Shown here piece after piece: positions 11 to 47,922 of a stretch of DNA of 48,643 nucleotides (position 1 is its first letter; each line of letters opens with the position of its first letter). The notes under the pieces were generated by a model. That model had not been told where the DNA came from. It made no database searches and saw only the letters and a list, made by a program, of their open reading frames with translations. The DNA is from Candidatus Micrarchaeota archaeon. Its GTDB lineage: Archaea; Micrarchaeota; Micrarchaeia; Anstonellales; Bilamarchaeaceae. Both the position numbers and the translations under genes were made by a program. The DNA lies in assembly GCA_013425455.1 (NCBI GenBank), contig JACCLI010000011.1, forward strand, positions 1 to 48,643, written 5' to 3'.

Positions 11-128
11 GTGTCAGCAGCAGTCCGCGTTCCCGTCCGTAGGACAGTACAGGCAAAACCGTAAAGGGGCTTAACTTCCGAGTTCGAGATGGGATCGGGT
101 GTTTCCCCCTTCCTATGGCCGCTGACAA
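11..128 (-). rRNA. 5S ribosomal RNA (stand-alone, ends +/-3 nt)
   Basis: Reverse complement reads GUCAGCGGCCAUAGGAAGGGGGAAACACCCGAUCCCAUCUCGAACUCGGAAGUUAAGCCCC...GGACUGCUGCUGAC. It contains the conserved 5S block CCCGAUCCCAUCUCGAACUCGGAAGUUAAGC. The terminal helix I is GUCAGCGG/CUGCUGAC. Confidence 0.85.
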
Positions 129-2527: not shown

Positions 2528-3865
2528 TTGGACAAGAATATATTATATCCAATAATATCAGTAATCGTGGTCATACTGGTCGCGGCGGGCATATACATTG
2601 CCGCAGAGGCGCTGGGCGGAACGAAGCCACACGACGGGGGTGGGGAAACCGCCATAAATGCAAGCGAACTCTACTTCCGCGCGATAGAGAAGCCCATCGG
2701 GGCCGGCGATTATATCTATTCATACAGGGAATCCTACGAGAACGGCTACTGGATGGACGTGACGGTTTCCAGGAAGGGGGACCTGCAATACGTGGAAAAG
2801 AGGGACCCTGCATACGGAAGACAGGCGTATCTCCAGCCGAATTCCACAATATTGTGCATAAAACACCTGAACGATAACATATGCGTCTCCCTGAACAGCA
2901 CCTCCCGCTTCATCAGCTATGCTGGAGACCTCGGAAGGATGCTCTACGACCAGGAGGCGCTGCGCCAGATGTCCGAGATGAACAGGAAGCTCCATTCCCA
3001 TGGCGCGCTTGTTTTTGAGGAGGCCTCGGAAAAAACAGTGAACGGCCATGAATGCGTGGAATTGAATTATAGCATAGATTATTCCGGCCTCACCGTGGCA
3101 CAGCTCAACGACATGGGCCTCTCGGTGAACAGCCCGCTTGTGCTCCGATCCAAGCAATACAACTATTCCATGTGCGTGGACCCGGAGAGCTACGAAATGT
3201 ACGAGAAGAGGATAGACTTCGTGGACCTGGGCCAGTACCGGATGATAAGGTCTGAGACCTCGACCATCACCTGGGGCACGGGGATGGATGTAACGGTGCC
3301 CACCCAGCTCTCCAGCGAGGATGACCTGTACGGGCTTTATGCAAACGTGAAGCAGGAGGCTGATGAATACTATGCCTGCCTTGGCCAGAACGGCTCCGAC
3401 AGGTGCATAGCCGAGGTTGCGATCGGCTGGAAGGACCCGGTGCTTTGCGAAGAGACGCAGGCAGAGAAAGATTTCTGCTTCCTCAACGCGGGCCTGGGTG
3501 CTGAGGACCCTTCAGCATGCGATAAGGTGAGCGCAAGCATAAAGGACACCTGCTATATAGAATTCGCGAACAAGATGAAGAATACGAGCTTCTGCGGGCT
3601 CATCATCAACGCTACGATGAAGCAGCAGTGCCTCGCGCTCAACATGACCGGGACCGGTGAATGCGGCAGGGATGCGGACTGCGTGCGCGCGGGATGCTCC
3701 TCTCAATTGTGCCTGCCGGCCTCACAGAGCGACACGATTACAACGTGCGAATATGTGCCCGAGTTCGCATGCCTCGCGCAGACTACATGCGGATGTGTGG
3801 ACGGGCGGTGCTCCTGGAGGCAGACGCCGGAGTACCTTAACTGCTTAAACCAAACTATGGGGTGA
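2528..3865 (+). CDS. Membrane-anchored/secreted protein with cysteine-rich C-terminal domain
   Basis: N-terminal hydrophobic helix ILYPIISVIVVILVAAGIYIAA. Several N-x-S/T sequons. The C-terminus is CGRDADCVRAGCSSQLCLPAS..TCEYVPEFACLAQTTCGCVDGRCSW, with 9 Cys in about 55 aa. TTG start in the ORF track. Confidence 0.6.
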   Translation: MDKNILYPIISVIVVILVAAGIYIAAEALGGTKPHDGGGETAINASELYFRAIEKPIGAGDYIYSYRESYENGYWMDVTVSRKGDLQYVEKRDPAYGRQAYLQPNSTILCIKHLNDNICVSLNSTSRFISYAGDLGRMLYDQEALRQMSEMNRKLHSHGALVFEEASEKTVNGHECVELNYSIDYSGLTVAQLNDMGLSVNSPLVLRSKQYNYSMCVDPESYEMYEKRIDFVDLGQYRMIRSETSTITWGTGMDVTVPTQLSSEDDLYGLYANVKQEADEYYACLGQNGSDRCIAEVAIGWKDPVLCEETQAEKDFCFLNAGLGAEDPSACDKVSASIKDTCYIEFANKMKNTSFCGLIINATMKQQCLALNMTGTGECGRDADCVRAGCSSQLCLPASQSDTITTCEYVPEFACLAQTTCGCVDGRCSWRQTPEYLNCLNQTMG

Positions 3866-8279: not shown

Positions 8280-9185
8280 CTACTCCTGCGCCGCGTACCA
8301 AATAAGCGGGAAGGCGAGCGTGGCATCCGCCCTTACAGTAACGTGCTTCCCTGCTTCCGAAATCTTTCCCCAGCTTATTGCTTCGGATGCTGGGGCGCCG
8401 CTTAAACTGCCGTCGTAGGATTCGGAGGTGGAAACATAGAGGGCGTAGTCAAGGCCGCCGCGAAGCAGGTTTACCCCAATTGTGTGATGCTTGGAAATCC
8501 CCCCTCCCAAAACTATCGCCGCGGTCTTGTCCGCGTTCAGCACAATGTCCGCCAGCCCCTTCATATCTTTCGTCACATCTATGGCAAACTCCCTGTGCTT
8601 CTGCTTCGCAAAATATGCCTGCAAACCGATTGCGGAATCGGTTATTCCAGGGGAGAACACGGGCACCTTCCTCTCATATGCCCAATGCAAAAACGAGTTC
8701 TCATCCTTTATGTTCCTGCCCATCTCAAAGGCGAATTCAGAAGGGGAGACGGGCGAGCGCTTCGCAAGCTCCGCGAAAATGGGTTTCAGTTTTTCTTCCA
8801 ATAATTCGTATCTGTCATTCGGAACAAGTATATTCCCTATCCTATTCACCCCCTCCTGGTGGAGCTTCGCGTCATCCGCGGAAAAGGAGCCCAGGAAATA
8901 TGATTCGTATGCCTTGATCATGTCGTGGTCCAATGAGCCGCCTGTTGTGATGATTGCATTCACCCATCCCTTTTTCACCATCTGCGCAAAAATCCCGCGG
9001 AGCCCGGAAGCCGCCATGTTTGCGGTGAACGCCAAAAAAACAGTGCACTTCTCCTTTTTTATCCTCTTTATGAGTTCCACTGCCTTCTGTAATTCCGTTG
9101 CCTGGAACCCCGCGTCACCGTAAGCATTTATGAGTTCGGAAAGCTTCGGCGCCTTCTCGAATTTGAAATCCTTTATCTCGTCCAT
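8280..9185 (-). CDS. dys: Deoxyhypusine synthase
   Basis: About 300 aa with the characteristic blocks TTGGSLDHD, VFSPGITDSAIG, LGGGISKHH and VSTSESYDGSLSGA. TATA-like TTTTTATATT lies about 25 nt upstream. Confidence 0.9.
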   Translation of the reverse strand: MDEIKDFKFEKAPKLSELINAYGDAGFQATELQKAVELIKRIKKEKCTVFLAFTANMAASGLRGIFAQMVKKGWVNAIITTGGSLDHDMIKAYESYFLGSFSADDAKLHQEGVNRIGNILVPNDRYELLEEKLKPIFAELAKRSPVSPSEFAFEMGRNIKDENSFLHWAYERKVPVFSPGITDSAIGLQAYFAKQKHREFAIDVTKDMKGLADIVLNADKTAAIVLGGGISKHHTIGVNLLRGGLDYALYVSTSESYDGSLSGAPASEAISWGKISEAGKHVTVRADATLAFPLIWYAAQE

Positions 9186-9251
9186 GGGTTGGATTGGGCT
9201 TCAGGAATATAAAAAGATGACGGAATGGAATAAGAAAGGAAAAAAGAAAAG

Positions 9252-9581
9252 TCACTCTATTGCGTTCAGGAGGTCCTGGTTCTTGTAGAACATGTACAGG
9301 AACGGTATGCCAAGCAGGAGGAACGAGAGCACGTACATCACAGTCGCCCCAAACATGAAGCCTGCCTTTCCCTTCGCAATGGCCGCCTTCTCCACATCCG
9401 AGAACAGCTTCCACAGGAAGTATATGTTCGCGAACGGGACCAGCATGAGGACCAAGCGTATTATCGGGTCGTAGTCCGCCTTTGTCGCCGCCTTGAGCTC
9501 CACCCACCAATTGTAGAGCAGGTAGAGGTTCACGAACGGTATGCACGCCATTACCAACGCCATTAACGGGCTTCTTGCCAT
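9252..9581 (-). CDS. Small membrane protein (DUF4234-like, tentative)
   Basis: Three hydrophobic helices. The motif NLYLLYNWW / ANIYFLWKLF occurs twice. Confidence 0.55.
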   Translation of the reverse strand: MARSPLMALVMACIPFVNLYLLYNWWVELKAATKADYDPIIRLVLMLVPFANIYFLWKLFSDVEKAAIAKGKAGFMFGATVMYVLSFLLLGIPFLYMFYKNQDLLNAIE

Positions 9582-29871: not shown

Positions 29872-29977
29872 AAAACAGCCGTTTGGAGGGTTATGATTAT
29901 GGTAAAGAGATTCGCTCTTTGCGCCGATGTATGGGGCACGGAGCGAAGAAGGGGGGTATCCCCCCTCTTCTTCCAAT

Positions 29978-30075
29978 CGGGCCCGGTGGGATTTGAACCC
30001 ACGACCTACATCTTAGGAGGATGCCGCGCTATCCAGGCTGCGCTTCCCGGCGCAATTTCTTGCGCATACGGGCCC
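29978..30075 (-). tRNA. tRNA-Arg (anticodon CCU) with 23-nt insertion (putative non-canonical intron, about 30044..30066)
   Basis: Reverse complement: GGGCCCG UA [UGCGCAAGAAAUUGCGCCGGGAA] GCGC AGCCUGGAUA GCGC G GCAUC CUCCUAA GAUGU AGGUC GUGGG UUCAAAU CCCAC CGGGCCC G. With the bracketed 23 nt removed this is a perfect 75-nt cloverleaf. Confidence 0.8.
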
Positions 30076-36394: not shown

Positions 36395-36459
36395 CGTATG
36401 TAACTACTGCCTAGAGGGTGCGGGAACGGCAACCGCACGGGCAAAAGAGAGGTGGTCAA

Positions 36460-37707
36460 ATGAAAACGGAAAAAATAAAGGTCCGCGGGATGCGCTGCAA
36501 GTCCTGCGAGGAAAGAATTGAGAAAGCCGTGAAGGCGGTGGAGGGAGTGGTTAGCGTGAAGGTGTCCCAGCAGAAAGGGGAGGTGGAGGTGATAACGGAC
36601 GATGCGGACAGGAAGGACTTGGAAGAGGCGATAAGGAAGGAAGGGTACTCCGTGGGCGGAGGATGGTTCTGGGTAGCGATTGGGGTGGCGGCACTCTTTG
36701 CCGCCGCCCTTCTCCTGGAAAATCTTGGGCTGGGCATACGGTTTCCGGAGGTTGGGGGGGAAGTGGGATATGCTGCATTGTTTGTTTTGGGGCTGGCCAC
36801 GGGATTCCACTGCATAGCGATGTGCGGAGGATTCGTGCTTGGTTATTCCTCTAGATCTGGAGCGGCCATAACACCTCACATATTGTACGGGGCGGGCAAG
36901 CTGCTTTCATACACATTCATAGGCGCGGTTTTCGGGCTGATTGGCTCGGCGATTGCCTTCACCCCGGAGATGAGGGCCGGGGCAGCGCTGCTTGCGGGGA
37001 TATTTCTTCTATTGTACGGGCTGGGGATGCTCGGGATAAGCGGATTGGCGGGAATACGGTTCGGGATGCCTGGATTTGTTAACGGGATTATGCAAAAGTT
37101 CGGGGGGCGCGGACCACTCGTAACCGGATTATTGAACGGGCTGATGATTGCATGCGGGCCCCTGCAGGCGATGTACATATTCGCGGCTGGGACCGGTAGC
37201 ATTGTTGCTGGGGCAACTGCGCTATTCTTTTTTGGATTGGGCACTTTGCCGGTGATGCTCGGGTTTGGTGTGCTGGCTGCGAGGGCTGGCGGAAACGTTC
37301 CTGCTAAATTCGCCTCCATCTCCGGGTGGTTGGTTATTTTCCTAGGGATACTTCTGCTGAACCAGGGGCTTACGCTCGTGGGAAAGGGAGTGGTGGTTGG
37401 AACCGGCGGGGAGGGGAATGCAACTTTGCAGAATGGAACTGCATTCCAGGAGATTCGTATGAATGTAACCTACTACGGGTTTGAGCCGAATACATTCACA
37501 CTAAAGAAAGGGGTGCCGGTGAGGTGGGTGATTACTGGTGTGAGCCTTACTTCCTGCAACAATCGGATAATAGTGCCCGCGTATGGGCTGGAGTTTGATG
37601 TGCAGCCCGGAGAGCAAGTGATTGAATTTACTCCGACGGAGGTTGGAGAGATAAAGTGGTCGTGCTGGATGGGAATGATCCCCGGAAAATTCGTGGTGGT
37701 GGAATGA
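36460..37707 (+). CDS. HMA domain - DsbD_2/UreH-like permease - cupredoxin fusion protein
   Basis: N-terminal GMRCKSCEERIE (GMxCxxC). TM domain with GFHCIAMCGGFVLGY. C-terminal cupredoxin-like FEPNTFTLKKGVPVRWVI..SCNNRI..WSCWMGMIPGKFVVVE. Start ATG 36460 preceded by GAGAGGTGG. Confidence 0.8.
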   Translation: MKTEKIKVRGMRCKSCEERIEKAVKAVEGVVSVKVSQQKGEVEVITDDADRKDLEEAIRKEGYSVGGGWFWVAIGVAALFAAALLLENLGLGIRFPEVGGEVGYAALFVLGLATGFHCIAMCGGFVLGYSSRSGAAITPHILYGAGKLLSYTFIGAVFGLIGSAIAFTPEMRAGAALLAGIFLLLYGLGMLGISGLAGIRFGMPGFVNGIMQKFGGRGPLVTGLLNGLMIACGPLQAMYIFAAGTGSIVAGATALFFFGLGTLPVMLGFGVLAARAGGNVPAKFASISGWLVIFLGILLLNQGLTLVGKGVVVGTGGEGNATLQNGTAFQEIRMNVTYYGFEPNTFTLKKGVPVRWVITGVSLTSCNNRIIVPAYGLEFDVQPGEQVIEFTPTEVGEIKWSCWMGMIPGKFVVVE

Positions 37708-37800
37708 TTGGAAAGGATATAGGTGCGTCAGGAGTACGTGCAAAGGGTTGCAAAGTGAAGTGGGGGAGGGTCAGAATGACCGGTAAAAATGGGGCAATAG

Positions 37801-37911
37801 TTTCGCAGTGGCGAAACTGTGCGCATTTTTCCCGCTGGAAAAATAGCGAGGGTGCTCCCTCCGCGTTTTTCCGAGGGAATGATACCCGGGAAGTTTGTGG
37901 TTGTAGAATGA
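37801..37911 (+). pseudogene. Remnant of a cupredoxin-domain gene (3' end duplicate)
   Basis: Frame reads FRSGETVRIFPAGKIARVLPPRFSEGMIPGKFVVVE*. The last 12 codons (37876-37911) match the last 12 codons of the 36460..37707 gene, with 6 differences that are all synonymous third-position changes. There is an in-frame stop at 37798 and no ATG before 37879. Confidence 0.45.
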
Positions 37912-37915
37912 TGAG

Positions 37916-38509
37916 GTGAAAAAAATGGAAGGAAAGGCTTGGTTGTTGGCGGGCCTGTTTGTGGTCATGGTTTTTGCCGCGATCGTTTATGCGGCCACCA
38001 TGAAGCCGCAGCAGGCGGAGGATGATTTGGGAGGGGGCTCCTGCGGGAACGCCGGGGCGGATGGGTGCTTCGCGGACGGGGGCGGGGGTGCGGTGGCTGC
38101 GCCTGCGACATATGCGCCTTCCGCGACGGTAAACAGGAGCAGGGAGCTCGAGCTCCAGGCGGCTGGGGAGGTGCGAACGTTTGAGCTGGGTTTTGACTGG
38201 GGCTCCGGAAACTACGAGCCTGAAGAGATACGGGTGCGGGCAGGGGACAGGGTGAGGATTGAGGCGGACGCGGGCACGTTCACAGGATGCATGTCAACGC
38301 TAGTGATTAACGGGATGGGCATAAGCAAGAGTATTACAACGACGGACAATGTGCTGGAATTCACCGCGGGCACGCCGGGGCGGTACAGGCTCACCTGCGG
38401 GATGGGAATGGGCAACGGATTGCTCGTGGTGGAGGACGAAAACGGGCTTGTGCCCGAGGCGGCTCCTGCTGCGCCCGCGCGCACCGGAGGGTGTGGGTGC
38501 GGAGGATAG
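37916..38509 (+). CDS. Secreted/membrane-anchored cupredoxin-domain protein
   Basis: Signal/anchor [18 protein letters not shown]. Cupredoxin-like [43 protein letters not shown]-terminal GGCGCGG. GTG 37916 or ATG 37925. Confidence 0.65.
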
Positions 38510-38553
38510 GAAAGGTGCAAAAAAATAATAAGGAGAACGGAGAGGTGAAGGCC

Positions 38554-40770
38554 ATGCCTGAGAAGACCGAGACAATAATAATCCCCGTGGGCGGGATGGA
38601 CTGCGCGTCCTGCGCGATGAGCATAGAGACCATGCTGAAGAGCACAAAAGGAGTGAGGGATGCGCGGGTTAATTTCGCCTCCCAGAAGGCGACCGTGGAG
38701 TACGTGCCTTCAGAGATAGGGATGCCTGCGATTGAGGCAATCATAACCAAGCTGGGGTTTGAGGTGCTGAGGGAGAAGCCCGGAAAAGACGCGGAAAAAG
38801 AGGCGCGGGAGCGGGAGATAAACGGCTATAGGACGAGGCTTATGGTTGCGGTAGTTGCTGCCGTTCCTGCGGCGATTCTTGCGATGGGGGAGATGACGGG
38901 GATTCCTTTTCCTGAGTGGATAATGGAGAATTCCATGTGGATCCAGTTCCTCCTTGCGACTTTGGCGATAATGGCCGGCTCGCAGTTCTTCACGCGCGGG
39001 ACGAAAGCTCTTATTAACCGGATGCCGACGATGGATTCGCTTGTGGCGATTGGGGTGGGTGCGGCTTATCTGTACAGCGTTGCGGTCACATTTTTGGGAT
39101 TGGAGGGATTTGTCTACTATGAGATTGCGGCAATACTCATCTCGTTCCTACTTCTTGGACGATTGATGGAGGCGACTGCGAGGGGAAAGACCTCCGAGGC
39201 GATAAAAAGATTGATGGGGCTGCAGCCTAAGACCGCGAGGGTGATGCGGGGAAAGGAGGAAGTGGAAATTCCCATCGCGAACGTGAAAGTTGGGGATGTG
39301 CTGGTTATCCGTCCAGGAGAAAAGATTCCGGTGGACGGGAGTGTGCTGGACGGGGAGTCCTATGTGGACGAGGCCATGATTACCGGCGAACCGATACCTG
39401 TGGCGAAGAGGAAGGGGGCAGTAGTGATTGGGGCGACCATCAACGGGACCGGAAGTTTCAGGATGCGCGCGGAAAAAGTTGGGAAGGATACTATGCTCGC
39501 GCAAATCATCAAGCTGGTGGAGGAGGCGCAGGGCTCCAAGGCGCCAATTCAACGGCTTGTGGATAAGGTTTCTGCTTATTTTGTGCCCACGGTGATGGGG
39601 CTGGCGATAATCGCGGGATTATACTGGTATTTTATTGCGGGAATGGGGTTCGTGTTTGCCCTAACCGCATTTGTTACGACGCTCATAATCGCGTGCCCTT
39701 GCGCGCTCGGGCTGGCGACGCCCACGGCGGTCATGATGGGGACTGGAAAGGGCGCGGAGTACGGCGTGCTGTTCAAGACCGCGAAGGCGCTGGAGGAGGC
39801 GCACAAGGTGCGGATGGTGGTTTTTGACAAGACTGGAACGCTAACGAAGGGGGAGCCGGAGGTTACTGACATTGTCCCGATAGGTATGGATGCGGACGAC
39901 CTTCTCGCCTTTGCGGCCTCGGCTGAGAGGAATTCCGAGCATCCGCTGGGCGAGGCGATTGTGCGAGAGGCGAGGGAGAGCAAGGCCAGGATTGCGGAGC
40001 CGCGCTCCTTCAAGTCGATAACCGGGCGGGGGGTGGAGGCAGGCGTAGGCGGGAAGAAGGTTCTTGTGGGAAATAGAAAGCTCATGGAAGAGAGGAAGGT
40101 CAAGGTTGCTGGGGCGGAGGAGGCGATGACGCAGCTTGAGGAGAAGGGAAGGACCGCGGTTATGGTCGCGGTTGGCGGTAAGATTGCGGGAGTGATCGGG
40201 ATTGCGGATTCCCTAAAGGAGAATTCAGTGGACGCGGTAAGGATGCTCAAGAAGCAAGGGCTCAGGGTGGCGATGATTACTGGCGATAACAGGAGGACGG
40301 CGCAGGCGATTGCAAAGGAGGCGGGAATAGATATGGTGCTTGCGGAAGTGCTTCCCGAGGAGAAGGAGAAGGAAGTGAGGAGGCTGCAGGCAGAAGGGAT
40401 GAAGATTGCATTTGTTGGGGACGGGATAAATGACGCGCCTGCGCTTGCGGCTTCGGACATAGGAATTGCAATCGGGAGCGGGACGGATGTGGCGATAGAG
40501 AGCGGGGACATCGTGCTGGTGAAGGATGATTTGAGGGACGTGGCGAAGGCATTGGACATAAGCAAATACACGATGAAGAAGATAAGGCAGAACCTCTTCT
40601 GGGCGTTCTTCTACAACGTGATCGGGATTCCGGTTGCGATGGGCGTTCTCTATCCATTTACCGGGTTTTTGCTGAACCCGCTTGTTGCCGGGGGGGCGAT
40701 GGCCTTCAGCTCGGTGAGCGTGGTTTCTAATTCCCTTCTCATGAAGGGGTATAAGCCGATCGGGGGGTAA
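38554..40770 (+). CDS. copA: Copper-translocating P1B-type ATPase
   Basis: [17 protein letters not shown], the CPC motif [20 protein letters not shown] and GDGINDAP. Confidence 0.95.
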
Positions 40771-44388: not shown

Positions 44389-44925
44389 ATGCGGATAATG
44401 GTGCTGAGGCTCGGGCACAGGCTCCCGAGGGATGAGCGCGTCACGACGCACGTGTGCCTCACTTCCCGGGCTTTCGGGGCTTCTGGAGTAATCTACTCGG
44501 GGCAGAAGGACAATTCCCTGGAGGCGAGCGTTAAGAGGATTGCAAACAACTGGGGCGGGGAGTTTTCAATAGAGTATGAGGCGAAGCCGATTCCACGGAT
44601 TGAAAAAATGAAAAAGGAGGGGTGGGCGGTGGTTCACCTTACCATGTACGGAATGCCGCTTCCGGAAAAGGTTAAGGATGTTGCAGGAAAGGGAAAAGTA
44701 TTGGTAGTAGTCGGGGCGGAGAAGGTTCCTTCGGAGGTTTATGAGCTCGCGGACTTCAATATCGCGGTGGGGAACCAGCCGCATTCGGAGATTGCGGCGC
44801 TCGCAGTAACGCTGGACAGATTGCAGGGCGGAAAGGAGCTGGAACGGGCATTCGAATCTAATTTTGGAGGGGCATCAATATCGCTGGAGCCAGCGGAAAA
44901 AGGAAAAAAGATAAGAAGGGGCTAA
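44389..44925 (+). CDS. tRNA (cytidine56-2'-O)-methyltransferase aTrm56 (SPOUT)
   Basis: MRIMVLRLGHRLPRDERVTTHVCLTSRAFGA is the characteristic aTrm56 N-terminus. About 178 aa. Confidence 0.85.
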   Translation: MRIMVLRLGHRLPRDERVTTHVCLTSRAFGASGVIYSGQKDNSLEASVKRIANNWGGEFSIEYEAKPIPRIEKMKKEGWAVVHLTMYGMPLPEKVKDVAGKGKVLVVVGAEKVPSEVYELADFNIAVGNQPHSEIAALAVTLDRLQGGKELERAFESNFGGASISLEPAEKGKKIRRG

Positions 44926-46586
44926 GGAGCCCCTGTTGCGCTTGTGCAGGTCATGGTCTGGCCGCAGTAGTATGGGCTGCAGCAATCTGCGGTGCTCGTG
45001 CAGTAGGTGCCGTACCCACCGCAGGTCTGCTCAGGCATGCAAACGAGGTTGTCGTTGCAATAGTAGCCATCGCAGCATACTGCGGCGCCCACTGCGCAGG
45101 AGCCGGATGTCGCGCAGGTTGTGGTGCTCCTTGTGCAAACCTTGTTCTCGCTGCAGTAGTAGCCGTCGCAGCAGTCGGAGGTCTTTTCACAGGAGCCTTC
45201 CCTCTTGCACGGAACCACGCATCTGCTGTTGGAGCAGGACATGCCTGCGCAGCATTCCTTCCTGCCCGCTAGGCAGGAGCCGCCCTCTGTGGCTGTGCAC
45301 TCGCTGCTGCATTTGCCGTCCTTGCACCAGGAGCCCTGGCAGCAGTCGGAATCGTACGCGCATGTGCCGCCGTTCTGCTCGCATGGGGTTACGCATCTGC
45401 CATCCATGCACTCGTAGCCCTCGCAGCAGGATATCTGCCCGTAGGCGCAGGTCTGGCCCTGCCCGGAGCATCCCTGGTTCGGGGTGCACCTTCCGTTCGC
45501 GCAGTAGTCCCCCTCGCAGCAGGTTCCGTAGTAGTTAGAACCCGCAGGCGCGGCGGTAGTCGCGTACTGCGTCCCGTAGCCGCATGTGCCTGCTGTCTGC
45601 ACGCAGTTCTGTGCCGGCGGTGAGCAGTATCCGTTCACGCACTGGTCATCACCACAGCAATCCCCGTAGTAGGCCGGGTTCTGGTAGTTGGCCGTGAAGG
45701 TCTGCGGGCCGTAGCCGCAGAACTGTCCGCGCTCGTTGCACTGTTCTTCAGGCGGCTGGCATGTTCCATCCACGCACGCCATCTGGTTGCAGCACTGGCC
45801 GTAGTAGTTCGAGGTCGCGGGCACTAGCGCCGTAACCGTTGTCTGGCCGTAACCGCAGGTCGCTCCCTGCTCTATGCACTCCTGTTGCGGGGTGCAGTAC
45901 CCTTCCATGCACTGCGAGTTGCCGCAGCATTCCCCATAATAGGTCGGGCGGTAGATTGAATTGTAGTTGCTGGTGCCCATGTTGTTGTTCGCAGTTCCAG
46001 CGGTGTTGGTGTTGGCGCCCGCAGCATTGGTACCATCGGTGTTGATGTTGGTCGCGCTGGTGTAAGTCCCTGGATTATATGGCAGGGTGTCGCGCTCGCC
46101 GGTCGGGCCGTATTGGCAGAGCCGGCCGTCAGGAACACACTCATCCCTCCTGCAGTAGCCGTCCCTGCATGCCGTCCCGTCACAGCAGTCGCCGTAGAAC
46201 GGGGTGCTTGCTGCGAGGTTGGTCAGCGGACTCTGCCCGTAGCCGCACTGGTTCCCCTCCTGGACGCATTCCTCTTCGCAGGTCGGGGTCTCAACGCAGT
46301 ATTCCATCGCGTAGCAGTTCACGCCCCTGGTCCTTCCGCCCGTATCTACATACGTGGAAGGCCTTCCGAGGGCGCTGCTCGCGTCGAGCACGTTTCCTCC
46401 GGACGTTTGGATCGTCCTCCCCGTTTCGTTCGGGGCGTAATATGCCGTGCCTCCGGTCTGACCGGTTATCGAGCTGCCTCCGCACTCGTTTGTGCAGGGC
46501 TTGAACCCGAGGACCGAAGCCGCCACGAAGGCCAGCATCAGAATCACTATTCCAAGCAAGAATAAGGTTAATTTGCCGGTATCCAT
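44922..46586 (-). CDS. Secreted/anchored protein with 11 tandem six-cysteine C-C-CC-C-C (knottin-framework) modules
   Basis: N-terminal hydrophobic helix LTLFLLGIVILMLAFVAASVLGF. 71 Cys in 554 aa. There are 11 modules between C107 and C547 with spacing C-x5-7-C-x(5-6 or 19-62)-CC-x4-C-x4-5-C. Confidence 0.7.
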   Translation of the reverse strand: MDTGKLTLFLLGIVILMLAFVAASVLGFKPCTNECGGSSITGQTGGTAYYAPNETGRTIQTSGGNVLDASSALGRPSTYVDTGGRTRGVNCYAMEYCVETPTCEEECVQEGNQCGYGQSPLTNLAASTPFYGDCCDGTACRDGYCRRDECVPDGRLCQYGPTGERDTLPYNPGTYTSATNINTDGTNAAGANTNTAGTANNNMGTSNYNSIYRPTYYGECCGNSQCMEGYCTPQQECIEQGATCGYGQTTVTALVPATSNYYGQCCNQMACVDGTCQPPEEQCNERGQFCGYGPQTFTANYQNPAYYGDCCGDDQCVNGYCSPPAQNCVQTAGTCGYGTQYATTAAPAGSNYYGTCCEGDYCANGRCTPNQGCSGQGQTCAYGQISCCEGYECMDGRCVTPCEQNGGTCAYDSDCCQGSWCKDGKCSSECTATEGGSCLAGRKECCAGMSCSNSRCVVPCKREGSCEKTSDCCDGYYCSENKVCTRSTTTCATSGSCAVGAAVCCDGYYCNDNLVCMPEQTCGGYGTYCTSTADCCSPYYCGQTMTCTSATGAP

Positions 46587-46667
46587 TTGTACACCTGGCT
46601 ATGCTACCAAAACAAGGATTAAAAATGCACCTGCAACCTTTTGGAGAACATTACCGGCATCAGTGGC

Positions 46668-46693
46668 GGGGAGGCCTCCCCTCCTTTATAAAG
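46668..46693 (+). promoter_or_regulatory. 14-bp perfect palindrome GGGGAGGCCTCCCC abutting TATA-like TTTATAAAG
   Basis: Palindrome at 46668-46681, TATA-like box at 46685-46693, and GGAGGTGG about 8 nt before ATG 46756. Confidence 0.35.
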
Positions 46694-46755
46694 AACAGAA
46701 TTCCTCATTCCCGTGCGACCAGGCGGCCCTCGGCAAGGGGCCGGAGGTGGGCGAT

Positions 46756-47022
46756 ATGCCCGTAGAAGATGAGATAATACATTGGTGGAAGGATGATAAG
46801 GGCGAACAGCACCGGACCATCCTCCGCATAGAGAGCGAGGAGCCCCAGAGTGCGAACGGATTCCCCAGGGATGGGATAATCATCGTAAGGGTGTCGAACA
46901 CGACCGGGATGGCTGCGATGAAGCTGAGCCCGGACGAGGGATTGCGGCTGTCCAACCAGATTCTGACCATCTCCAAGGAACTGCTGAACAAGAAAAGAAA
47001 AATGTGGAGGGAACGGGACTAG
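46756..47022 (+). CDS. Small hypothetical protein (88 aa) between the two Cys-rich genes
   Basis: ATG preceded by GGAGGTGG. Protein-like sequence MPVEDEIIHWWKDDKGEQHRTILRIE... No motif assigned. Confidence 0.4.
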   Translation: MPVEDEIIHWWKDDKGEQHRTILRIESEEPQSANGFPRDGIIIVRVSNTTGMAAMKLSPDEGLRLSNQILTISKELLNKKRKMWRERD

Positions 47023-47880
47023 CTAACTCTCGCACACGTGCGTGTTCATGTTGCAGGCTTCCCCGCTCTCGCAATCTGAGTTGGTATTGCAGTTTCCTGC
47101 CTTGGGGACGCAGTGGTGGTTCGCAGTGTAGCAGACCTCCCAGGAATTGCAATTCGCTGTCGCATCGCAGTAGCCCGGCTTCGGCCTGCAGGTGTGGGTA
47201 TTCCCAATTTCGCAGTACTGCCATTCGTTGCAATCCGTGTCGTGACCGCAGAAACCAGGGCCTGTAACGCACCTGCTGGTTTCCCTGTTGCACGATTGCC
47301 AGTTGGCGCAATCATCCGCGCTCACGCAGAAGCCCGGCCTGGGCTTGCAGAAATGTGACTCCGCGTCGCAGGCCTGCCAGCCCACGCAGTCCACGTCGTC
47401 GTTGCACCTGTCCTGGAACGCCACGCACACCTTCTGCGCGACATCGCATCCCTCCCATGAGTTGCAGTCATAGTCGTTCTCGCACCTTCCGGGGAGCAGG
47501 GAGCACCTGTGCGACTCTGGATCGCAGGCCTCTATCTCCGCCCTGCAGTCCCCGTTTGAGGCACAGTAGCCTGAGAGCGGCTTGCATGTGCCGTCCGTGC
47601 CGCAGGTCTGCCAGCGCACGTCACAGTCCGTAGCCTGTGCGCAGGCGCCCGCCTTCATAAGGCAGATGTGCGTGGTGGTGTTGCACTGCTGGTTCGAGGT
47701 GCAGTCGGCGTTCGCGGAACAGTATCCAGCCTTAACCGCGCAGGTGCCGTTCTGGCAGGACTGCCATGTTTGGCAGTTGGAATCGGAAGTGCATCCGGCC
47801 GGGGCTGTGCTTTCTCCGCCCGTGCAGCCATAAAGGATAATCATAACAGCCATAAGACCTGCAATAAGTAACTTCTGCAT
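47023..47880 (-). CDS. Lipobox protein with 10 tandem ~24-aa four-cysteine modules
   Basis: Signal plus lipobox-like MQKLLIAGLMAVMIILYGC. Then 10 repeats of G-x-C-x5-C-x5-6-C-x4-7-C, often ..DCxxWQxC.. 41 Cys in 285 aa. Confidence 0.7.
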   Translation of the reverse strand: MQKLLIAGLMAVMIILYGCTGGESTAPAGCTSDSNCQTWQSCQNGTCAVKAGYCSANADCTSNQQCNTTTHICLMKAGACAQATDCDVRWQTCGTDGTCKPLSGYCASNGDCRAEIEACDPESHRCSLLPGRCENDYDCNSWEGCDVAQKVCVAFQDRCNDDVDCVGWQACDAESHFCKPRPGFCVSADDCANWQSCNRETSRCVTGPGFCGHDTDCNEWQYCEIGNTHTCRPKPGYCDATANCNSWEVCYTANHHCVPKAGNCNTNSDCESGEACNMNTHVCES

Positions 47881-47922
47881 TTTCACACCTTTTGTGATAG
47901 ATATGCGCAAAATCATTAAAAA

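Follow-up and report, generated by a model that had tools for sequence, protein, structure and literature searches.

The locus and its cysteine-rich gene

The stretch analysed here (hereafter, the window) comprises positions 1 to 48,643 of contig JACCLI010000011.1 (assembly GCA_013425455.1, Candidatus Micrarchaeota archaeon), that is, 48,643 nucleotides (nt), and its minus strand carries a gene whose product of 554 amino acids (aa) contains 71 Cys (12.8%). The products of the remaining open reading frames (ORFs) of the window contain 0-5% Cys, the sole exception being the product of 47023-47916 with 13.8%. The gene and the regions of the protein that it encodes are as follows:

44922..46586, minus strand: Cys-rich gene of 554 codons (ORF with an ATG start), coding for a predicted transmembrane anchor, a juxtamembrane region and 11 knottin-like modules
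46506..46571, minus strand: N-terminal hydrophobic helix (about residues 6-27), a putative export signal or signal-anchor and the only hydrophobic segment of the protein
46269..46439, minus strand: conserved juxtamembrane region (residues 50-106), delimited from the alignment and containing the N53-E-T sequon and Cys 91, 97 and 103
45486..46268, minus strand: modules 1-5 (residues 107-367), with a long loop, C-x6-C-GYG-x(~14)-YYG-x-CC-x4-C-x4-C, delimited from the Cys spacing
45948..46100, minus strand: low-complexity insert rich in Asn, Thr and Gly in loop 2 of module 2 (about residues 163-213), delimited from the sequence and the alignment
44946..45470, minus strand: modules 6-11 (residues 373-547), minimal, 25-27 aa each, delimited from the Cys spacing

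When the gaps between successive Cys are measured, 66 of the 71 fall into 11 consecutive modules, from C107 to C547, all of which follow the pattern C-x5-7-C-x5-62-CC-x4-C-x4-5-C. Loop 1 has 5-7 residues, Cys III and IV are adjacent, loop 4 has 4 residues and loop 5 has 4-5; loop 2 counts 19, 62, 20, 19 and 20 residues in modules 1 to 5, respectively, and 5-6 residues in modules 6-11. All 11 modules, thus, show the six-Cys C-C-CC-C-C framework of knottins, with typical loops in modules 6-11 and an atypically long loop 2 in modules 1-5; in the latter, a GYG directly after Cys II and a YYG-x ahead of the CC pair are common to all five, and 114 such long-loop modules were found in relatives of the protein. 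The five Cys outside the modules (C31, C35, C91, C97 and C103) all precede the array, C91 and C97 being invariant, C103 nearly so, and C31 and C35 variable; as they make the total odd, one Cys has to be free, bound to a ligand or engaged in an intermolecular disulfide. A search for tandem repeats at the DNA level found none; the modules, thus, go back to old duplications that have since diverged and been maintained by selection.

This map agrees in every count with an earlier, sequence-only reading of the same DNA, which had reported 71 Cys in 554 aa, 66 of them in 11 modules (C107-C547), and placed the array at about nt 44946-46268, the correct range for residues 107-547. The Gly/Tyr-rich long loop 2 of modules 1-5, the Asn/Thr-rich insert of module 2, the minimal size of modules 6-11 and the N-terminal hydrophobic helix, all described there, were likewise found.

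Conservation and archaeal origin

That the gene is real, archaeal and conserved is seen from its relatives. A protein search returned 20 of these, all unnamed or "hypothetical" (individual proteins are designated below by P numbers), several of them from Candidatus Micrarchaeota assemblies, and a scan of species-representative genomes found orthologues 46-77% identical in Micrarchaeota, "Ca. ainarchaeum" and unclassified archaeal metagenome-assembled genomes from sediment and groundwater; those at 66-77% identity sit on Candidatus Micrarchaeota assemblies. Together with the neighbouring gene for aTrm56, an archaeal tRNA methyltransferase, the orthologues on Micrarchaeota assemblies indicate an archaeal origin. 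An alignment of 16 orthologous sequences (36-80% identity) shows no change at most of the 66 framework Cys and conservation of at least 90% at the remainder; several Gly and Tyr positions are also kept, as is each individual module position from one orthologue to another.

The insert of module 2 behaves differently from the rest of the protein. Its length and sequence differ even between orthologues that are 70-80% identical, relatives P0011-P0014 (46-52% identical) lack it, and it is modelled with a predicted local distance difference test (pLDDT) score below 50; it forms a hypervariable surface patch, probably disordered, within an otherwise strongly constrained protein.

The C-terminus varies as well. 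A Cys-containing domain of about 60 aa, C-[TS]-D-S-D-G-x-x-Y-Y...Y-G-x-Y-x-D-Y-C...E-Y-x-C...C-x-x-G-C-x-x-G-x-C, absent from the window protein, is found at the C-termini of P0010-P0014, P0016 and P0018, where it replaces the last module in the 36-52% identical relatives and is added after the last module in P0010 (66% identical). The same domain forms arrays of up to about 10 copies in other exported proteins (P0025, P0043, P0044, P0064, P0092, P0093 and P0099); the members scanned against Pfam (P0025 and P0043) gave no match for it.

Sequence similarity to knottins

We built a profile of the minimal module (27 positions) from 110 distinct modules of the 20 relatives and compared it with every sequence in the PDB. 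At E <= 10 it matched about 100 chains, about nine of these below 1e-3, and the 60 matches listed are almost all inhibitor cystine knot (ICK) peptides. The best match is Xt3a (7rz3, E = 1.2e-8), a bivalent (double-ICK) remipede toxin (PMC9950431); among the others are cyriotoxin-1a (6gft, E = 8e-6), Aca toxin 1 (6nk9, E = 9e-6) and delta-conotoxin TxVIA (1fu3, E = 1.3e-4), with hainantoxins, purotoxin-6, the double-knot toxin Hi1a and the plant alstotides and wrightides ranking lower, and with the ICK lectin Selenocosmia huwena lectin-I at E = 0.06. A control profile was made from the same sequences by permuting the columns within every loop, which leaves Cys positions and composition as they were; it matched only 8 chains (best E = 0.013). 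Since the control loses the signal, the latter must come from position-specific non-Cys residues common to known knottins and not from the framework alone.

Pfam points the same way at the level of single modules: Toxin_12 (PF07740) matches 86 of the 110 at E <= 1 (best 7.9e-5), other conotoxin and spider-toxin families rank after it, and, among the relatives, P0029 reaches 36 bits with Toxin_12 and P0017 has a precomputed PF07740 match. The ten-Cys family Dickkopf_N (PF04706), which 60 of the 110 modules match at E <= 1, was considered and rejected: in the bacterial relatives whose Dickkopf_N alignments were seen, most matches cover just the last 20-27 profile positions, a single six-Cys unit and not the full domain.

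A profile of the long-loop module gave only weak ICK matches in the PDB, none of which spans the long loop, and we, thus, found no solved counterpart of the GYG...YYG extension. A three-module alignment searched against the protein database returned one fragment only, the word index being ill suited to such queries.

Disulfide pairing

A deep profile search retrieved 642 representative proteins at E <= 1e-3, and 1279 module-like segments, from 167 sequences, were aligned to the hidden Markov model (HMM) of the module. This alignment replaced a count of the 15 possible Cys-pair losses by regular expression, which was discarded because of register shifts in tandem arrays.

All six Cys are present in 619 of the 1279 segments. 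Where the CC pair is kept and two framework Cys are substituted, these are II and V only (four cases: P0068, P0059, P0067 and P0115); no other pair loss with both positions substituted occurs among the 1279 aligned segments. Furthermore, in about 200 four-Cys modules of other proteins, I and IV are absent together, and the apparent losses of IV only turned out to be losses of I and IV in which the last Cys of the preceding module had been aligned as Cys I. The loss of II with V and the absence of I with IV fit the pairing I-IV, II-V and III-VI; they are indirect evidence for such a pairing and do not prove a knot, in which III-VI would be threaded through the ring.

One has to keep in mind that Cys-rich proteins can be read in another way: the Cys could be reduced and bind metals or metal-sulfide surfaces, making the protein an extracellular metallothionein or a mineral-attachment protein without cystine knots. 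A Cys content as high as 12.8%, a probably anoxic sediment or groundwater habitat (judged from the sources of the homologous assemblies) and a copper-handling cluster about 4-8 kb off would suit such a role. It does not, however, account for Cys that are lost in pairs consistent with disulfide partners, for beta-hairpins predicted with good confidence, or for a non-Cys signature that is shared with disulfide-bonded knottins and lost in the permuted control; moreover, no His or Asp ligand patterns are present, and the copper cluster is neither adjacent nor in conserved synteny. We consider metal binding highly improbable.

Predicted fold

The full-length AlphaFold2 model has a pLDDT of 56 overall and of 70-83 over modules 6-11. 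DSSP finds in each module of this model a pair of short strands around Cys V and VI (e.g., 392-394/397-399 and 450-452/455-457), and the predicted models, thus, place Cys V and VI on a beta-hairpin, as in the knottin class. For a long-loop module (module 4, residues 281-323), the model built with 73 orthologous and paralogous modules has a pLDDT of 83.6, strand 35-37 pairing with strand 40-42.

When the full model was compared with the PDB using Foldseek, the top of the list consisted mostly of knottins, none of them significant: the squash inhibitor EETI-II (TM-score 0.70, normalised to the target), the spider toxin Pn3a (root-mean-square deviation (rmsd) 1.0 A over 29 columns), the conotoxin GXIA (rmsd 1.1 A over 30 columns) and the double-knot toxin DkTx. 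For the long-loop module, spider ICK peptides matched best, U5-scytotoxin-Sth1a coming first (probability 0.82). The ICK-like framework that the sequence-only reading had proposed is, thus, borne out beyond the Cys spacing by the PDB profile and its permuted control, by the Toxin_12 matches and by the superposition of the AlphaFold2 models; of the checks that it had put forward, the profile search retrieved almost only knottins from the PDB, and the structure predictions yielded models of both module types that superpose on knottins, albeit with Foldseek E-values that are not significant.

The very first Foldseek match of the full model is wheat-germ agglutinin (E = 0.23, probability 0.08, TM-score 0.13), a very weak match that would go with a multivalent lectin: modules resembling hevein (CBM18) or a spider lectin would bind glycans of a host envelope through exposed Tyr (CC-x-G-Y-Y-C, YYG), with avidity gained as in wheat-germ agglutinin. 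DPANN archaea do attach to host cells, the protein has 40 Tyr, many of them beside the CC pair and in loop 2, and S. huwena lectin-I is among the profile matches. Nevertheless, Chitin_bind_1 (PF00187) neither matches the protein nor appears in the 25 families most matched by the modules, 4 residues, not the 5 of hevein, separate CC from the Cys that follows, the Ser-plus-aromatic triad of hevein is unrecognisable, and the wheat-germ agglutinin match is itself not significant. A lectin of this kind is, in our view, unlikely.

Export, anchoring and processing

The N-terminal helix has a Kyte-Doolittle peak of 2.95 (19-residue window) and spans residues 3-26 in the AlphaFold2 model. As the hydrophobic segment is about 20 residues long, a signal-anchor is favoured over a cleaved signal, and the sequence suggests that the helix stays in the membrane. 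An archaeal type IV pilin (class III signal peptide, PF07790) was considered and rejected: Pilin_N gave E = 0.068 with 14.5 bits against a cutoff of 25.2, and the N-termini of the orthologues lack the conserved K/R-G cleavage motif before the helix. The juxtamembrane region, modelled with a pLDDT below 50, contains nine invariant residues in the 16-sequence alignment (T55, G64, G74, D81, G84, C91, Y96, C97 and P101) and a single N-x-S/T sequon, N53-E-T (nt 46422-46430), kept in 13 of the 16 homologues. Paralogues start with lipoprotein-like signals (...LLLGC), and other proteins with the same modules have Tat-like N-termini or LPxTG-like C-terminal motifs. The helix, the kept sequon and the export signals of paralogues and module-sharing proteins would together place the modules outside the cytoplasm, and the protein is probably exported and N-terminally anchored. 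Where the sequence-only reading had called it secreted, the export part stands, and free secretion gives way to probable anchoring.

The linkers between modules are 3-6 residues long, often with Pro, and differ from one another (VTP, SSE, VVP, TPNQG), without a general processing motif. They bear directly on the suggestion that the protein is a polyprotein precursor, cut between modules to release up to 11 free knottins that would target the host or competitors, be it as toxins, antimicrobials or signals. In eukaryotes, double-ICK toxins and precursors of several knottins do exist, the modules are closest to secreted toxins, and a dibasic RR follows module 1 in many orthologues (CRRDEC); such a precursor should, however, have linkers with a common cleavage motif rather than short ones unlike one another, it would not be expected to carry an N-terminal membrane helix or, as in the relatives, a different, non-knottin domain at its end, and the individual conservation of each module position speaks for a fixed architecture and not for interchangeable cargo. 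We regard a precursor as very unlikely; of the three roles advanced in the sequence-only reading (adhesin, stalk and polyprotein precursor), it is the least supported one, and a stalk or adhesin is favoured.

Gene neighbourhood and other features of the window

The gene order around the target is HAD hydrolase, Cys-rich lipoprotein, 88-aa gene on the opposite strand, target, aTrm56 (convergent with the target, with a 4-nt overlap) and TerC. This order, from the HAD hydrolase to TerC, is kept at loci where the target is only 46-52% identical, and a different gene context is seen in a more distant subclade. The neighbouring features are as follows:

47023..47916, minus strand: Cys-rich lipoprotein-like protein of 297 aa, with signal ...IILYGC and 41 Cys (13.8%), described from its repeat map
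46756-47022, plus strand: 88-aa gene (MPVEDEIIHWWKDDKGEQHR...) between the two Cys-rich genes, without a Pfam family
46618..46625, minus strand: TATA-like TTTTTAAT some 35 nt before the ATG, perhaps an archaeal promoter element, as read from the sequence
44917..44934, minus strand: GC-rich hairpin at the stop codon with a T-rich tail behind it, possibly terminator-like (consensus scan, weak evidence)

The consensus scan for promoters and terminators found sites no commoner than in shuffled sequence.

The lipoprotein-like neighbour consists of about 10 tandem repeats of 26-27 aa, each with four Cys (C-x5-C-x5-C-x6-C) and often with a Trp; it scores 32 bits with DUF5885, just below the cutoff of 33.2 bits. 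Four syntenic loci carry it at 61-70% identity, in every case upstream of the gene for the knottin-like protein. That its repeats might be degenerate knottin modules was considered and rejected, as they score about 0 bits with the module HMM. The remaining neighbours (HAD hydrolase, aTrm56 and TerC) are housekeeping genes, and the most that the context supports is, therefore, that the two Cys-rich exported proteins function as a pair.

Several other observations were made in and around the window. The 88-aa gene is far more conserved than its surroundings (87-93% identical at loci whose neighbours reach only 46-77%), and the antisense ORF at 46686-46991 (minus strand) is probably its shadow. 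At an orthologous locus 68% identical (L002), an IS605-family OrfB/TnpB (Cas12f-like) gene at 8354-9556 lies between Trm56 and TerC; no such insertion is present in the window. The copper-handling cluster at 36418-40770 (plus strand), outside the conserved synteny, consists of a DsbD_2 (CcdA-like)-HMA-cupredoxin fusion, a membrane-anchored cupredoxin and a P-type heavy-metal ATPase; its DsbD-type protein could, in principle, provide extracellular reductant for disulfide isomerisation. At 2528-3865 (plus strand) lies a gene for a 445-aa protein without a Pfam family, with an N-terminal membrane helix, many N-x-S/T sequons and 22 Cys, mostly in its last ~170 residues, which is possibly exported as well. 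Of RNA genes, just two were detected in the window, one for a 5S rRNA (12-126, minus strand) and one for a tRNA-Arg(CCT) (29977-30054, minus strand).

Interpretation

On balance, we lean towards an anchored extracellular stalk or adhesin made of 11 knottin-like modules, standing in the envelope of a DPANN (Micrarchaeota-type) archaeon. The N-terminal helix would carry the protein across the membrane and most likely remain there as its anchor, followed by a conserved juxtamembrane stretch of about 60 residues with one conserved N-glycosylation sequon. Beyond it, 11 modules with up to 33 disulfides, each expected to adopt a knottin-like fold with a C-terminal beta-hairpin, would be joined by short, often Pro-containing linkers into a stiff "beads on a rod" stalk, resistant to proteases and denaturation. 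The GYG...YYG loops of the five membrane-proximal modules and the hypervariable insert of module 2 are the likely contact surfaces. The most probable role would be both structural and adhesive, that of an envelope spacer or adhesin in an episymbiotic archaeon, perhaps acting together with the neighbouring Cys-rich lipoprotein. We prefer a stalk to a precursor because of the N-terminal anchor, the short motif-free linkers and the C-terminal domain appended in relatives; indeed, relatives whose array ends in the ~60-aa domain fit a stalk that presents a tip.

A number of points weigh against this interpretation, some of them against the knottin assignment itself. HMMER tends to give Cys-rich profiles too favourable E-values, a concern that the permuted control addresses. 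The gathering threshold of Toxin_12 (21 bits) was not reached: the whole window protein gave no match to it at E <= 1, and most module matches lie below the threshold, from which it follows that the protein belongs to no single toxin family. Likewise, the scans of the whole protein against Pfam and NCBIfam returned no family, Pilin_N being the only match at E <= 1. The best Foldseek E-values (0.23-0.65) are not significant because the domains are tiny (25-30 residues, and fewer than 45 for both module types), and AlphaFold2 may be reproducing a knottin geometry learned from the C-C-CC-C-C pattern. As for biology, extracellular disulfide formation has to be assumed in a probably anaerobic organism, the Cys outside the modules are odd in number (five), and the gene neighbourhood gives no pointer to function.

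A bolder version would have the modules be true cystine knots sharing ancestry with animal, plant and fungal knottins, and the array, being more than a spacer, engage the membrane or membrane proteins of the host directly, as its toxin relatives do, mediating episymbiotic attachment or access. We think this decidedly unlikely; if it were true, prokaryotes (DPANN archaea and Myxococcota) would have used the knottin fold as a repeat unit of their surface proteins earlier than, or in parallel with, its use in free eukaryotic toxins.

A stalk or adhesin of knottin-like modules would matter in several respects. Few mini-protein scaffolds are as stable or as much engineered as knottins, and the long-loop GYG...YYG module would represent a natural knottin tolerating a graft of 20-60 residues in loop 2, which is relevant to scaffold engineering. 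To our knowledge, the proteins that hold DPANN episymbionts on their hosts are largely unknown; a gene pair (knottin-like stalk and Cys-rich lipoprotein) that is strongly conserved and predicted to be exported would be a concrete candidate for host attachment by these archaea.

Comparison with known systems

The 2017 paper on the KNOTTIN database described knottins as "still absent from archaea" and bacterial knottins as lacking an experimental structure (PMC5753296). A literature search combining knottins with DPANN, Micrarchaeota or archaea brought up no paper that reports them from archaea; a 2026 preprint on "CysRReps" does mention Micrarchaeota, but the framework described there differs (C-x6-9-C-x5-7-C-x8-11-C-x7-8-CC), and it was set aside. 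A conserved archaeal family with 11 modules and relatives in Polyangiales/Myxococcales would, thus, extend the knottin fold to the third domain of life, show it as a structural repeat instead of a free toxin, and reopen the question of the origin of knottins.

The ICK toxins of spiders, cone snails and remipedes (Toxin_12: huwentoxin, hainantoxin and cyriotoxin-1a; delta-conotoxin TxVIA) have the C-C-CC-C-C framework with the same loop lengths as modules 6-11. They also share with the archaeal modules the Gly of loop 1, an acidic residue or Ser before CC, CC-x-G-[LY]-x-C and N/D-G-x-C; the predicted backbone of the minimal modules superposes on theirs at about 1 A, and Xt3a, DkTx and Hi1a have tandem modules, as the archaeal protein does. 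The known ICK toxins are, however, free peptides of animals with one or two modules, whereas here 11 modules follow one another in a single, probably anchored chain of an archaeon; loop 2 of modules 1-5 runs to 19-62 residues and carries GYG...YYG, for which we found no PDB counterpart, and venom-type propeptides or processing sites are absent. Either common ancestry or convergence could account for the likeness.

Other prokaryotic proteins come close as well. Proteins of Polyangiales/Myxococcales, and those with Tat-like or LPxTG-like motifs, are exported tandem arrays of C-x5-6-C-x5-6-CC-x4-C-x4-6-C that match the same profile with E-values of 1e-10 to 1e-26; the Tat-like N-termini and LPxTG-like C-termini look bacterial. 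These arrays, uncharacterised so far, differ from the archaeal protein in their N-terminal parts and anchoring and have neither GYG...YYG modules nor the juxtamembrane region; the "bacterial knottins" of the KNOTTIN database may be related to them. Long arrays of the framework are also found in animals, as seen from an uncharacterised 491-aa protein of the spittlebug Clastoptera arizonana (P0033, UniRef A0A1B6DZN5), which has more than a dozen tandem C-C-CC-C-C modules and matches the archaeal profile with E = 4.8e-28. The sequence-only reading had found such an array in an archaeon unusual; the archaeal host is indeed so, but the array itself is less so, given those of Polyangiales/Myxococcales and of the insect, and given that double-ICK toxins and secreted cysteine-rich repeat proteins (SCREPs) have been described.

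Arrays of hevein/CBM18 domains, such as wheat-germ agglutinin, are likewise made of small, CC-bearing disulfide domains (30-43 aa) with a knottin-like core and exposed aromatic residues, forming a rigid multivalent array; hevein, however, has eight Cys and CC-x5-C, and the archaeal modules have CC-x4-C, no PF00187 match and a fold match that is not significant. Finally, SCREPs, which the 2018 survey by Maxwell et al. describes as spanning bacteria and eukaryotes, "two distinct domains of life" (PMC6262176), are recognised by an export signal and at least two tandem disulfide-rich domains, both of which the archaeal protein is predicted to have. SCREPs are a descriptive class and not a homologous family, and the protein described here stands apart from them by its archaeal host and its probable anchoring.

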